Assembly: GCA_963707215.1 (NCBI GenBank)
Contig: CAVPPB010000002.1
Location: forward strand, 384,001-448,000
DNA from: an uncultured Chloroflexia bacterium
GTDB lineage: Bacteria; Chloroflexota; Limnocylindria; Limnocylindrales; CSP1-4
Direction: 5' to 3'
DNA length: 64,000 nt
Shown one piece after another: positions 48,202-52,001 of the stretch (positions within the stretch are counted from its first letter, which is position 1; the number at the start of each line of letters is the position of its first letter). The notes beneath the pieces were generated by a model. The model was not told the origin of the DNA, did no database searches, and worked only from the letters and a program-made list of their open reading frames with translations. The position numbers and the translations under genes were made by a program.

Positions 48202-48777
48202 GTGTTCATCCTCTATGCGCTCCTGGTCGGGCTCGTCGTCGGAGCGCTGACGGGGGGCCGACCGGCCCGCCTCGGCTCGCTGGAGATCCGCTGGCCATGG
48301 GTCATCGCCGGCGGACTCGCCGCCCAGCTGATCCTCTTCTCCGAGCCCGTGACCCGGGTCGTGGGCGACGCCGGGCCGCCCCTCTACATCCTCTCGACGC
48401 TGGCGGTCCTTGCTGCCGTCAGCGTCAACCGGCGGATCCCGGGCATCCCCCTGGTGATCGCCGGTGCCGTTTCGAACATGACCGCCATCGTCGCCAACGG
48501 CGGGTACATGCCGACCACGCCTGAGGCCCTGGCGGCCCTCGGCAAGCTGCCTCCGGAGACCTACTCGAACAGCTCGGTGCCGATCTCGCCGATGCTCTGG
48601 CCGCTGACCGACATCTTCGCCATGCCGGCCTGGCTGCCCTTCGCCAACGTCTTCAGCATCGGCGACGTGCTGATCGGGCTCGGCATCGCGATCGCCGTGG
48701 TCGCCACGATGCGCCGGCCGGACGCCGATCCGGTGCCGCCCGGGGCGGCGGCCCCTCCGGGGGTCCTCGTCCCCTAG
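48202..48777 (+). CDS. DUF5317-family membrane protein; putative LspA-like aspartic peptidase
   Basis: RBS AAGGAG then GTG 48202; GG.P.RL..L..RW, N..ANGGYMP, LTDIF, VFSIGDVLI. Family recognised by motif; peptidase role is inference. Confidence 0.75.
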   Translation: MFILYALLVGLVVGALTGGRPARLGSLEIRWPWVIAGGLAAQLILFSEPVTRVVGDAGPPLYILSTLAVLAAVSVNRRIPGIPLVIAGAVSNMTAIVANGGYMPTTPEALAALGKLPPETYSNSSVPISPMLWPLTDIFAMPAWLPFANVFSIGDVLIGLGIAIAVVATMRRPDADPVPPGAAAPPGVLVP

Positions 48778-48930
48778 GGGCACCGACCGACCCTCCCTCG
48801 AGCGGTCGTGGCGCCCCGGTGCACCGGCGAATCGGATCGGGCCCCCCGGTACCCATGAGCCAGTGGCCGCGATCCGGCCGTCACGTAGCGGTCGCCCCCG
48901 AGGGCGACGTCCGCCTTCCGCCGCAAGGCC

Positions 48931-49011
48931 GTCCAGGGCAAACCCGTCGCGAGGCGGGGACGCAAAGCCAGGGATCTTCAAGGACCAACGAAGACCGCCC
49001 GGTTGCCGGAC
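48931..49011 (+). promoter_or_regulatory. Cyclic di-GMP-I (GEMM) riboswitch
   Basis: GTCC-AGGGCAAACCCGTC-GCGA-GGCGGGGACGCAAAGCC...GGTTGCC-GGAC shows GEMM core motifs, a GNRA-capped P2, P3 TCTTC/GAAGA and P1 GTCC/GGAC. Confidence 0.9.
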
Positions 49012-49048
49012 CTACGGTGAGGTCTCGGGGAACGAGAGGTACAGACAC

Positions 49049-49138
49049 GTGAAGGCGAACCTGGCGCGCTTCACCACGGCCGTCGCGCTCCTGGCGTCGA
49101 TGGCCCTCACCCTTGGCGCGGGGATGCGCTGGTGGTAG
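49049..49138 (+). CDS. 29-aa signal-peptide-like micro-protein MKANLARFTTAVALLASMALTLGAGMRWW
   Basis: RBS GAGAGG about 9 nt before GTG; directly under the riboswitch; n-region/h-region layout. Confidence 0.7.
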   Translation: MKANLARFTTAVALLASMALTLGAGMRWW

Positions 49139-49170
49139 CTCCCTAGACGGGAACGACAAGGGAGACGACC

Positions 49171-49245
49171 ATGGACACGCTGAACATCCCCCTCGAGGAT
49201 CGGGTGCCGGCCGTTGGTCCGATGGCCGGTCATCGGTGGAGCTGA
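49171..49245 (+). CDS. 24-aa micro-protein MDTLNIPLEDRVPAVGPMAGHRWS
   Basis: RBS AAGGGAG 6 nt before ATG; C-terminus AGHRWS mirrors AGMRWW of the upstream peptide; absent from the ORF track. Confidence 0.55.
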   Translation: MDTLNIPLEDRVPAVGPMAGHRWS

Positions 49246-49278
49246 TCGCGACGACCGGTCGCGGCGGCCCGCATCGAG

Positions 49279-49307
49279 CGACCGCCGGGCGTCATGCCCG
49301 GCGGTCG
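49279..49307 (+). terminator. Hairpin closing the riboswitch-peptide transcript
   Basis: CGACCGCCGGGC-gtcat-GCCCGGCGGTCG (12-bp perfect stem, no U-tract). Confidence 0.55.
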
Positions 49308-49430
49308 AGCGATTCAGGGGCTGGGACCGGTCCGTACCTTCGGGCCAGTCTCCCGGGGCTCGCTGCGGGCTAGTCTCGAGCCCTCCGGGGCGGTCCGGAC
49401 GACCTGCCCCGAGCCTGCCGTACCAAGGGA

Positions 49431-52001
49431 GTGCCTGTGACCCCGAACCGGGTCATCCGAGCGCGCGCGATCGGGCTGTCCGTCGTCCTGGCTCGCCGCC
49501 CCAGGCTCGAGCCGTCGCAACGCGTCTGGCTGCTGACCATCGGCCTGGCCGTAGCGGCGACGCTCGTGCTCGCGCTGTCCGGCGGCTTCCTGTCCGGACG
49601 GGCGACGTCGGCGATCCCCTGGCCGCTCATCGCCCTGGGGATGTACCTGGCCGAGGTCAAGGTCGTCGTCGTCCACTTCCGTCGCGAGAGCCACTCCTTC
49701 TCGCTGAGCGAGATCCCGGCCGTCATCGGACTCTTCCTCCTGAGCCCCATGGACTACGTGCTGGCGGCGACGATCGGACCGACCCTGGCCTTCGTCTACC
49801 CGGCCCGTCAGCCCTTCATCAAGGCGGCCTTCAACGCCGTCAACTACCTTCTCATCGCCTCGGTCTCGCTGGTCACCTTCCAGATCCTGGCGCCCGGCGG
49901 CGTCGTCGGCCAGCCGGGCGCCCAGGCCTGGCTGGCGGCCTTCGTGGCGATGCTCGTCTCCACGGTCATCAGCAGCCTGACCATCGCCTCGGTCATCACC
50001 CTGTCGGGCGGGGCGCCGCAGTTCCAGAAGATGCCGGAGATGCTCCAGTTCGGCGGTCTCGTGGCGCTCGCCAACACCAGCATCGGTCTCCTTGCCCTCG
50101 CGGTCGTCAGCGTCGACCCGGCCGGCATCTGGCTCCTGATCGTGCCCATCGCCGCGGTCTTCCTTGCCTACCGGGCCTACGTCTCGGAGCGTGAGAAGAA
50201 GGAACGCCTGGAGCTGCTCTACCAGTCGAGCCGCATCCTCCAGCACACGCCCGAGCTCGACGCGGCGCTGATCGCCTTGCTCGACCACGCCCGCGACATG
50301 TTCCGGTCCGAGCGGGTCGACTGCCGTCTCGTGCCGGCGGCCGGGGGGCCCGTCCTGCTGACCCGCTCGCTGCTCGATGTCGAGCCGATCGTCATGGAGG
50401 CCCAGCCCGAGGGTCCGGACGACGAGCTCTCGGCCGTGCTCCAGCAGCGGAGCGACGCCTTCATCTACCGGCCGGAGGCACCGGGCTCCGGGATCCGCCA
50501 GGCGATGGTCGCTCCGCTGGCCGGCGAGGACCGGCCGATCGGCCACCTCATCGTCGCCAACCGGCTGGGGGAGGCCTCCTCCTACGGGGTCGACGACCTT
50601 CGCCTCCTCGAGACGCTCGCCGGGCAGGTGGCCGTCGCCCTCCAGAACGGCCAGCTGGAGCAGTCACTCACGGAGCTGTCCCGGCTGAAGGACGAGCTCC
50701 GTCACCAGGCCTATCACGACTCCCTGACAAGGCTGGGCAACCGGGTCCTCTTCGCCGAGGCCGTCGAACAGAGTCTGGCCGTGGCCTCGGACCTGGAGAC
50801 CGTCGTCCTGTTCCTGGACCTCGACGACTTCAAGATGGTCAACGACACGATGGGTCATGCCGTCGGGGACCGGCTCCTGGGCGTCGTCGCCGAGCGCATC
50901 TCCCGGAGCGTCCGCGAGACCGATGTGGCGGCCCGCCTGGGTGGCGACGAGTTCGCGGTCCTGGTCCACGACCAGCCCGATCTCCGGGTCGCACTGGCCC
51001 TGGCCGGTCGGCTCCGCGAGGAGCTCCATCGTCCCGTCCGCCTGGGTGGCAGCGAGACGGTGGTCGACGTCAGCATCGGGATCGCCGCCGCCTCGAAGGG
51101 CGTCGGCGCCGACGAGCTGCTCCGCAACGCGGACATCGCGATGTACAAGGCCAAGACCGATGGCAAGGGCCGGGTGGCGCTCTTCGACCCGACGATCCAT
51201 GCCGCCATCGTCGCCCGCCATGCCCTCGGGACGGACCTGACCCGGGGGCTCCTGCAGAACCAGTTCGAGCTCTACTACCAGCCGATCGTCGTGCTCGGGA
51301 CGGGATCGATCTCGGGCTACGAGGCGCTGCTGCGCTGGCATCACCCGCAGCGCGGTCTGATCACCCCCGACGACTTCATCCGGGTGGCCGAGGAGACGGG
51401 CTCCATCGTCGACATCGGGGCCTGGGTCCTCCGGGAGGCCTGTGGGCAGGCCACGGCCTGGTCGGCCCTGCCCGGCATGGACGATCGGCTCTCGATCAGC
51501 GTCAACGTCTCGCCGCGCCAGCTCCAGGACCCGGAGTTCGTGGACCTTGTCCTGGGAGTGCTCCGCGAGACCAGCCTTCCGCCCGAGCGGCTCGTCCTCG
51601 AAGTGACCGAGACGGCGATGTTCCAGGACCCGGTCACCGTCGGCGCGAAGCTCGAGGCGCTCCGCGAGGTGGGTGTGCGGGTCGCCCTGGACGACTTCGG
51701 CACCGGCTATGCATCGCTCAGCCATCTCCGCCGGTTCCCGGTCGACATCCTCAAGATCGCCCGCGACTTCGTCGTCGACGCCGACGCCGAAGACGACGCC
51801 TGGGCCTTCGCGGCGGCGATCGTCGCACTGGCCCGGACCCTCCAGCTCCAGGTCGTGGCGGAGGGCATCGAGCAGTCGCGCCAGGTCGAGCGGCTGCGCG
51901 GCCTCGGGTGCCAGCTGGGCCAGGGCTACTTCCTCGCCCGCCCCGCTCCGGCGGCGGTCATCGATGCTTCCATCGGCGCCGTCGGCTCGGCGACGGCCTG
52001 A
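49431..52001 (+). CDS. Membrane (~7 TM) sensor - GAF - GGDEF - EAL diguanylate cyclase/phosphodiesterase
   Basis: Hydrophobic N-terminal ~245 aa; GAF-like segment; HDSLTRLGNR, RETD I-site, RLGGDEF, EALLRW, DDFGTGY, AEGIE. Confidence 0.93.
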   Translation: MPVTPNRVIRARAIGLSVVLARRPRLEPSQRVWLLTIGLAVAATLVLALSGGFLSGRATSAIPWPLIALGMYLAEVKVVVVHFRRESHSFSLSEIPAVIGLFLLSPMDYVLAATIGPTLAFVYPARQPFIKAAFNAVNYLLIASVSLVTFQILAPGGVVGQPGAQAWLAAFVAMLVSTVISSLTIASVITLSGGAPQFQKMPEMLQFGGLVALANTSIGLLALAVVSVDPAGIWLLIVPIAAVFLAYRAYVSEREKKERLELLYQSSRILQHTPELDAALIALLDHARDMFRSERVDCRLVPAAGGPVLLTRSLLDVEPIVMEAQPEGPDDELSAVLQQRSDAFIYRPEAPGSGIRQAMVAPLAGEDRPIGHLIVANRLGEASSYGVDDLRLLETLAGQVAVALQNGQLEQSLTELSRLKDELRHQAYHDSLTRLGNRVLFAEAVEQSLAVASDLETVVLFLDLDDFKMVNDTMGHAVGDRLLGVVAERISRSVRETDVAARLGGDEFAVLVHDQPDLRVALALAGRLREELHRPVRLGGSETVVDVSIGIAAASKGVGADELLRNADIAMYKAKTDGKGRVALFDPTIHAAIVARHALGTDLTRGLLQNQFELYYQPIVVLGTGSISGYEALLRWHHPQRGLITPDDFIRVAEETGSIVDIGAWVLREACGQATAWSALPGMDDRLSISVNVSPRQLQDPEFVDLVLGVLRETSLPPERLVLEVTETAMFQDPVTVGAKLEALREVGVRVALDDFGTGYASLSHLRRFPVDILKIARDFVVDADAEDDAWAFAAAIVALARTLQLQVVAEGIEQSRQVERLRGLGCQLGQGYFLARPAPAAVIDASIGAVGSATA

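Follow-up and report, generated by a model that had tools for sequence, protein, structure and literature searches.

In the 64,000-nucleotide stretch of uncultured Chloroflexia DNA analysed here (contig CAVPPB010000002.1, positions 384,001 to 448,000; the window), two very short open reading frames (ORFs) follow each other between the gene of a DUF5317 membrane protein and the gene of a protein with membrane, GAF, GGDEF and EAL parts. ORF 1 encodes a hydrophobic peptide (peptide 1) and ORF 2 a hydrophilic one (peptide 2), and the two have a common C-terminus, A-G-x-R-W-x-stop, which in peptide 2 reads ...VGPMAGHRWS. The initial annotation, made from the letters of the window alone, had described a hidden pair of peptides, and mentioned neither the upstream riboswitch, nor the DUF5317 neighbour, nor the coupling of the two ORFs in related genomes. 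From these three it follows that the frame shifts beyond a peptide pair: the locus is, as read from its sequence, a micro-operon controlled by a riboswitch. The order of its parts shows ORF 2 as the predicted second cistron of a unit that consists of a class I riboswitch for cyclic di-GMP (c-di-GMP), a 29-residue peptide, a 24-residue peptide and a strong hairpin, and that stands behind the DUF5317 gene.

ORF 2 has the ATG, the Shine-Dalgarno sequence and the stop codon that the initial annotation had given it, the spacer of 32 nucleotides (nt) between peptide 1 and ORF 2 agrees with the coordinates, and the 12-bp hairpin is found downstream, preceded by a stem of 6 bp. The alignment of AGHRWS with AGMRWW at the same distance from the stop holds as well, since both ORFs end A-G-x-R-W-x-stop. 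That such a shared tail is unlikely to occur by chance had been supposed, and is borne out by calculation: when the 406 nt after peptide 1 are shuffled with preserved dinucleotide composition, an ORF of 15-60 amino acids (aa) ending AG.RW. is obtained in 1 of 5000 shuffles, and one ending in the looser tail G.[RK]W.{0,4} in 10 of 5000.

The initial annotation would have abandoned ORF 2 if it were absent from orthologous loci. When positions 48900-49430 are compared by BLASTN with 60 related genomes, the matches span the riboswitch aptamer and peptide 1 and end where peptide 1 ends, and in 10 of the 12 loci (not in L018 and L027) a second ORF ending G-x-[RK]-W stands directly after peptide 1. 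Orthologues of the window's own type of peptide 2 extend to no fewer than four further genera (L012, L015, L016 and L017). Species genomes scanned for a 24-nt pattern taken from the start of the peptide-1 coding sequence give at least 120 loci; among the 124 matches listed, 93 belong to the peptide-1 family and 31 lie inside unrelated larger ORFs. A second ORF, defined as 15-60 aa ending G.[RK]W.{0,4} that begins between -6 and +150 nt relative to the stop of peptide 1, occurs in 70 of 92 distinct downstream regions, compared with 0.18 on average and never more than 2 in 50 shuffles, and when [AS] is demanded before the Gly the numbers are 68 of 92 against 0; the regions were chosen by their peptide-1 DNA and are all relatives, which means that these locus counts overstate independence. 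The nucleotide invariance of the first peptide-1 codons in this set is circular, because the pattern was taken from those very codons. Four of the loci (L055, L062, L101 and L106) come from records labelled as metagenome-assembled genomes of Actinomycetes, Methylomirabilota, Deltaproteobacteria or Gemmatimonadales; their sequences are close to the Chloroflexota ones, and mis-binning or gene transfer is possible.

Codon usage in the tail is informative about the level at which selection would act. In 72 peptide-2 genes anchored at the Trp codon, the invariant Gly is encoded by all four codons (GGT 25, GGG 19, GGC 17, GGA 11), the preceding Ala or Ser by GCC 33, GCG 19, TCC 10 and GCA 6, and His by CAT 23 and CAC 22. 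The invariance of Gly, Arg/Lys and Trp is a product of the search pattern, while the synonymous spread and the preferences for Ala/Ser and Glu are not. Peptide 1 varies in the same way in its own tail, with Ala as GCG 33, GCC 29, GCA 20 and GCT 8, and Gly as GGC 40, GGG 27 and GGA 21. From the synonymous codons at the conserved Gly, Ala and His follows selection at the level of the peptide, and ORF 2 is in this manner shown to be a genuine, conserved micro-gene that would code for protein. The contrary reading, that ORF 2 is no gene and either arose by chance or is conserved at the RNA level only, could appeal to the shortness of the ORF and to a nearly invariant hexamer, CGC-TGG, at its end. 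It is largely refuted and, in our estimate, scarcely credible when set against the shuffle tests, the synonymous codons, the retention of frame and stop position while the upstream part of peptide 2 varies in length, and the coupling of peptide-2 starts to the peptide-1 stop.

This coupling is seen in 68 of 71 distinct pairs, where the start of peptide 2 falls between -4 and +8 nt, counted from the last base of the peptide-1 stop codon (-4 in 20 pairs, +2 in 31). Such spacing is the layout of a predicted translational coupling, to which the window, with its 32-nt spacer and a Shine-Dalgarno site of its own, is an exception. The CGG Arg codon of peptide 1 was considered as a Shine-Dalgarno element for peptide 2 and rejected, as it is no commoner where a peptide 2 follows (28 of 68 peptide-1 genes) than where none does (13 of 22).

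Table 1. Position, strand and properties of the features discussed. Plain positions refer to the window; those with a prefix lie elsewhere in the window's genome (G000).
Feature	Position	Strand	Details
Micro-ORF 2 (peptide 2)	49171..49245	+	24 codons, MDTLNIPLEDRVPAVGPMAGHRWS; hydrophilic, ends AGHRWS; ATG 49171, stop TGA 49243-49245
Shine-Dalgarno AAGGGAG of micro-ORF 2	49158..49164	+	from sequence
Micro-ORF 1 (peptide 1)	49049..49138	+	GTG 49049, TAG 49136-49138; 29 aa, hydrophobic, ends LGAGMRWW
Shine-Dalgarno-like GAGAGGT of peptide 1	49034..49040	+	from sequence; AGGAG/GAGGT-like block aligned there in relatives
6-bp palindromic stem	49247..49263	+	from sequence; begins 2 nt past the ORF 2 stop
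12-bp GC-rich terminator-like hairpin	49279..49307	+	CGACCGCCGGGC (49279-49290) pairs with GCCCGGCGGTCG (49296-49307); no U-tract
c-di-GMP-I type riboswitch aptamer	48928..49011	+	RF03167 65.6 bits (gathering 59), E 5.4e-15; RF01051 59.6 bits (gathering 35)
DUF5317 membrane-protein gene	48202..48777	+	191 aa form P0001; Pfam PF17248 E 2.6e-27; database form 99% identical
Membrane-GAF-GGDEF-EAL protein gene	49431..52001	+	Pfam EAL 1.6e-71, GGDEF 3.8e-42, GAF
RNA-library contig X1	48914-49068		no differences
RNA-library contig X12	48911-49177		7 differences, 1 gap
RNA-library contig X18	48985-49143		from a relative
RNA-library contig X20	49028-49143		
Riboswitch-less family member	C2:342652-342792	-	MKRIKLETVRVVLVLSALASMALALEAGRRWF; same strand as and 3' of second DUF5317 gene
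Riboswitch-less family member	C2:331342-331572	+	3' of unrelated gene
Second c-di-GMP-I aptamer	G000:C2:474223-474311 (locus L004 1501-1589)	-	67.6 bits

The relation between the two peptides becomes clear when their relatives are aligned. For peptide 1, 82 distinct sequences (alignment A4) have L5, A6, R7, F8, A24, G25 and W28 invariant. The 68 distinct peptide-2 sequences fall into 27 that are hydrophobic, e.g. MKTTFKAAQLRILIALMTIASSALVLEAGQRWK, and 41 that are hydrophilic, and in alignment A6 the hydrophobic ones line up with peptide 1 from end to end, sharing an invariant Arg and LAS.AL..AG.RW. The alignment thus shows peptide 2 as a paralogue of peptide 1 that arose by tandem duplication. 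By the simple rule that a hydrophobic helix is an uncharged stretch of at least nine residues, peptide 1 and 27 of the 68 peptide-2 sequences have one and the peptide 2 of the window has none. The hydrophilic forms are of several types, from 16 to 35 aa long, e.g. ...RPGPSAGHRWS, MTTSDRIRPESGHRWG and the window's own peptide, and they have only [AS]-G-[HQRL]-R-W in common. The acidic and hydrophilic leader that the initial annotation ascribed to peptide 2 is a derived state, as 27 of the 68 distinct sequences keep a hydrophobic helix like that of peptide 1. The comparison shows that in the lineage of the window peptide 2 has lost the helix and kept, as the sole part under selection, [AS]-G-[HQ]-R-W-x-stop. 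Nature has in this way made an experiment, with the whole helix in one paralogue and five residues in the other, by which the functional motif is pinpointed. Where peptide 1 is degenerate (L020, L037, L104, L133, L114 and L147), it goes together with a hydrophobic peptide 2, from which it follows that at least one hydrophobic member is always encoded.

Neither peptide matches a family in Pfam-A (E up to 1) or NCBIfam (E up to 10), their neighbours in the ESM Atlas are unnamed clusters of hypothetical proteins, and no paper on the peptide family was found in the open-access literature. A profile built from alignment A6 finds 267 representative proteins at E <=0.001, and 18 at <=1e-10, among 1.84 billion searched; the 15 of these 267 that were inspected all prove to be either small proteins or ORF calls extended too far, in some cases across the riboswitch, which they translate. 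In two matches one ORF runs through peptide 1 and a peptide 2, of the hydrophobic kind in P0147 (70 aa) and of the hydrophilic kind in P0153 (61 aa). Each may be a natural fusion or the result of a sequencing error; genuine fusions would argue that the two peptides act together. Of 151 genomes sampled from the window's family, the profile matches 81 (counting the unpublished G390), which represent 31 of 49 genera and have at most five matches each; among the high-quality genomes of that family the number is 36 of 81. One genome of the window's own genus, G001, has no BLASTN match to the cassette and two profile matches elsewhere. The genome of the window itself has four members, namely the pair under study and two that lack a riboswitch. 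Both of the latter have a CGC codon for the Arg of the tail.

A short, hydrophobic and cationic peptide with a C-terminal Trp, which forms an adjacent related pair, recurs up to five times in a genome and is tightly gated by an RNA element, could also be a small toxin that acts on membranes, with peptide 2 as the partner that tempers or complements it, in the manner of type I toxins or of two-peptide bacteriocins. This is, we believe, very unlikely, since the predicted helix of peptide 1 is hydrophobic all round and not amphipathic, the 900-nt flanks of the loci show no antisense RNA, immunity gene or ABC transporter, and neither the conserved tail nor the synteny with DUF5317 would be explained.

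The riboswitch is the element by which this unit would respond to c-di-GMP. It passes the curated gathering scores of both Rfam models of the known c-di-GMP-I class, RF03167 and RF01051, and its 3' end lies 37 nt 5' of the peptide-1 start. In 89 of 93 loci the core of such an aptamer lies no more than 140 nt 5' of peptide 1, and the other four consist of two one-base variants and two cut flanks. The expression platform extends into the first codons of peptide 1, where codons 5-7 show complementarity to two segments of the aptamer, CGUCCAGG and GCCAGG. Since there is no terminator between the aptamer and ORF 1, since aptamer and codons are complementary, and since the start codon of peptide 1 sits in a local hairpin, we infer that the control is translational and that it would gate peptide 1. 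RNAalifold pairs CGUCCAGG of the aptamer with CCUGGCGCG of the ORF, without covariation and with a 3' side that is fixed by the search pattern. Over 89 sequences, the accessibility of start codon and Shine-Dalgarno site barely differs between ensembles constrained to the aptamer fold and free ones, and no ON/OFF direction is derivable from these calculations. A scan of positions 48500-49700 for consensus promoters and terminators gave nothing useful, and the hairpin at 49279-49307 was not called by it. In the open-access literature no paper on riboswitches of the Limnocylindr- lineage was found, and for the c-di-GMP-I-GGC variant model only listings of its name.

Metatranscriptome contigs from four libraries span the aptamer and peptide 1, with a combined extent of at most 48911-49177. 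They show presence in RNA libraries only, which falls short of proven transcription, and none of them extends into ORF 2 past 49177, a gap in cover that does not speak for absence. In the contig from a relative, peptide 1 is followed by AGAAGGGAG, six bases and an ATG, i.e., by the Shine-Dalgarno and start layout of the window. That contigs from two studies begin at 48911 and 48914 is a weak hint of a possible 5' end. A 91-aa ORF at 48863-49138 (forward strand) reads through the riboswitch into peptide 1, and its extension across the riboswitch is an annotation artefact. The database proteins P0181, P0261 and P0148 of relatives are over-extended likewise and translate the aptamer.

Downstream of the last micro-ORF, the best hairpin within 110 nt has a mean folding energy of -29.8 kcal/mol over 94 loci, compared with -22.6 for mononucleotide shuffles, and the typical stem has 10-14 perfect, GC-rich pairs. 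The genes that follow form several clusters without relation to each other, and many are encoded on the opposite strand; this analysis was limited to 900-nt flanks, with frames picked by the GC content of third codon positions, and when the representatives of 15 clusters of flanking ORFs were compared with Pfam there was one match (aconitase family), most representatives being shadow ORFs in a wrong frame of a GC-rich genome. The strong hairpins and the many next genes on the opposite strand speak for an autonomous unit. The N-terminal part of the GGDEF-EAL protein of the window clusters with downstream same-strand ORFs at six other loci, and at all seven peptide 2 is of the hydrophilic type.

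It is here that a serious rival must be considered, in which peptide 2 acts in cis as an arrest or leader peptide. The nascent G-x-R-W-x would then act inside the ribosome at termination, and a ribosome held at the stop codon would mask the hairpins that begin 2 nt downstream and so control read-through into the GGDEF-EAL gene or the stability of the mRNA, by which a translational riboswitch could come to control a downstream gene. Regulatory nascent peptides such as SecM, TnaC and MifM are likewise conserved at the C-terminus only, at a fixed distance to the site of the ribosome stop, in a leader transcript ahead of hairpins. The hydrophilic peptide 2 is conserved only in its last 5-9 residues and is otherwise free in length (16-37 aa) and sequence; 67 of 71 distinct peptide-2 sequences have exactly one residue after the Trp, although the pattern allowed 0-4, and this stop distance is the one that would be expected of an arrest or leader peptide. 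The Arg before the Trp is, furthermore, CGC in 70 of 72 peptide-2 genes, while the equivalent position of peptide 1 has CGG 40, AAG 26 and CGC 15; the hairpins lie within 2-35 nt of the stop; and the GGDEF-EAL association is confined to the hydrophilic type. Yet the same tail with equal spacing terminates peptide 1 and the hydrophobic peptide 2, in which the whole helix is conserved, and it is found in stand-alone paralogues that have no riboswitch, while peptide 1 tolerates 0-7 residues after its Trp. There is also no constant downstream gene, in contrast to what the known nascent peptides would suggest, their motifs are different, and the link to GGDEF-EAL may reflect shared ancestry alone. 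All in all, a role in cis seems unlikely to us, but it stays alive, because the single residue after the Trp and the CGC codon are left unexplained if the peptides act in trans.

The constant neighbour lies upstream. Of the 59 loci with at least 600 nt of upstream flank, 48 have the C-terminal motif of DUF5317 on the same strand, the distance from its stop to the start of peptide 1 being 170-301 nt, and some of the 11 loci without it are second cassettes of tandem arrays. The genome of the window has a second DUF5317 gene (C2:342972-343391, reverse strand), which has no riboswitch and which is followed on the same strand by the third member of the peptide family. Among 27 longer DUF5317 proteins, four are listed with EAL and ten with MFS domains, one of these also with GGDEF and HD-GYP, and the fusions to EAL and to GGDEF/HD-GYP would tie DUF5317 to the turnover of c-di-GMP. 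The fusion proteins listed are P0123, P0129, P0130, P0146, P0142 and P0134-P0145, and gene-calling artefacts are possible among them. For an upstream MMPL gene, tblastn with the C-terminus of the window's MMPL protein gave no match in the loci, the flanks of which are too short to judge. Two Asp residues at a distance of 18 positions do not vary among 29 diverse DUF5317 sequences, and neither do N, G, M-P and G-D motifs. An AF2 model of the protein has a pLDDT (predicted local distance difference test) of 88.4; Foldseek with this model returned nothing at E <=0.001, a DUF5317 profile found no match among PDB sequences, and no paper in the open-access full-text literature was found to mention the family.

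The invariant Asp pair bears on another alternative, that of an exported and processed signal, in which peptide 1 is a precursor whose tail is released or modified outside the cell, e.g. at the Trp, with peptide 2 as variant or antagonist and DUF5317 as the processing protein. The basic N-terminus of peptide 1, its uncharged stretch and the small residues G-A-G before x-R-W would suit such a precursor, and lipoprotein signal peptidases (5dir_A, Z 5.4, 17% identity; 6ryp_A, Z 5.3, 20%) rank 7 and 10 of 48161 chains in VIA-align with the DUF5317 model, with the highest identities listed, though a Z of about 5 is at the noise level of helical bundles. DUF5317 as a signal peptidase II (Peptidase_A8), a lead that came from similar motifs and a weak Pfam match (E 0.26; 11.9 bits, where the cut-off is 25), is not supported by profile comparison: hhalign with the lineage's own signal peptidase II gives a probability of about 0.5% (0.46% and 0.52% in two versions). 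The hydrophilic peptide 2 has no export signal, the hydrophobic one has Glu at -3 of the putative cleavage site, and no transporter, receptor or modifying enzyme is conserved beside the cassette in the 900-nt flanks, for which reasons we give this alternative little credence.

On balance, and with restrained confidence, we hold the whole to be best explained by a pair of micro-proteins that would act in trans, through their common tail, on one partner, possibly DUF5317. The riboswitch would gate translation of peptide 1, and peptide 2 would be made by termination and reinitiation in the majority of relatives, but in the window from a Shine-Dalgarno site that belongs to it alone. Peptide 1 would be anchored in the membrane, and a soluble peptide 2 would act as modulator or competitor. 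The adjacent DUF5317 protein would be the best candidate for the partner, with the downstream GGDEF-EAL enzyme as the alternative, and the weakest step in the scheme is that both peptides should act in trans on one and the same partner. The initial annotation had thought of peptide 2 as a cytoplasmic competitor, an idea that is compatible with the data and has become part of this reading. To exemplify how such a switch could work, consider a more specific version, which we find quite unlikely, in which peptide 1 docks on DUF5317 by A-G-x-R-W, peptide 2, of which hardly anything but this five-residue tail is left, competes for the same place, and the ratio between them, set by the coupling, tunes turnover or transport under the control of c-di-GMP. 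If this were true, a riboswitch and two micro-proteins would close a feedback loop that acts on c-di-GMP turnover or transport. Small membrane proteins that regulate larger ones, reportedly with antagonistic pairs such as MgrB and SafA on PhoQ, are similar as peptides below 50 aa with one helix that modulate a membrane sensor or transporter, and in the idea of two small proteins with one target, which is here a proposed one. They have no sequence relation to the present peptides, which are paralogues encoded on a single transcript, one of the two being soluble.

Several points weigh against action in trans. Translation of the peptides is predicted, and any interaction proposed, from sequence. 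The conservation of the hydrophilic peptide 2 in its last few residues, at fixed stop distance, and the CGC codon of its Arg would suit a cis element no less than a protein motif. The tail of a membrane peptide may also be in another compartment than a peptide that is soluble in the cytoplasm. The loci were selected by pattern and are all kin, which inflates their apparent independence, the long-range pairing of the riboswitch has no covariation, and the constrained folds are indecisive. Finally, of 301 genomes sampled across the phylum (including the unpublished G280), 91 have DUF5317, and at the best 30 of these loci the peptides are downstream only in two, both from the window's family, which means that DUF5317 does not need the peptides.

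Riboswitches for c-di-GMP were long thought to control genes of ordinary size, such as those of adhesins, pili and enzymes. If the favoured reading is right, the locus represents a little-known route of c-di-GMP action, by way of related mini-proteins switched at the RNA, and the peptide pair offers a first functional handle on DUF5317. The nearest precedent, apparently unrelated in sequence, is the family of riboswitch-controlled proteins in Clostridioides difficile. CD1980.2 and CD2309 are described as small membrane proteins of 58 aa under class I c-di-GMP riboswitches, with a function in sporulation and regulation by premature transcription termination, such small proteins being called the main output of c-di-GMP riboswitches for sporulation control in C. 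difficile, and no homologues outside this species are reported there (PMC13724677, Nat Commun 2026). Both systems have small ORFs directly 3' of a class I riboswitch (here, aptamer end 49011 and starts 49049 and 49171), several paralogues per genome of which some lack a riboswitch, and a history of being missed by annotation; the hydrophobic helix described there is here predicted for peptide 1 and for 27 of 68 peptide-2 sequences. The differences are these: 58 aa and a predicted four-helix bundle against 16-37 aa and a single helix or none; Firmicutes against Chloroflexota, with apparently different sequences; transcription termination against a cassette with no terminator between aptamer and ORF; and a C. 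difficile family which, as described, has neither coupled genes in tandem nor a C-terminal motif in common nor a DUF5317 gene beside it. An apparently unrelated and even smaller family in the equivalent riboswitch position of a second phylum suggests that leading from riboswitch to micro-protein is a recurrent design overlooked by annotation pipelines, a suggestion that follows from the occurrence in more than half of the sampled genomes of one Chloroflexota family and from the database proteins that the profile finds and that have no Pfam or NCBIfam name.

Some further arrangements of these elements were seen. Whole cassettes of riboswitch and micro-ORFs occur in tandem about 490-530 nt apart at L086 (901-924 and 1428-1451), L089 (901-924 and 1390-1413), L122 and L139, and up to five profile matches cluster on one contig in some genomes, e.g. 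G436:C392. One other c-di-GMP-I aptamer is present in the genome of the window, outside the window itself and 5' of an unrelated gene, the product of which starts MSYWDGTHWE and has a hydrophobic anchor; aptamers of this second type in relatives precede similar MSYWDGTHWE-like genes and a TadE-like pilus gene. On the minus strand of L023, a different hydrophobic ORF of 35 codons, MSVRVSTRARNVALGALNLGAVLAVFIGAAASLHI, lies about 79 nt past the start of yet another c-di-GMP-I aptamer, and may be a second kind of riboswitch-controlled micro-protein.

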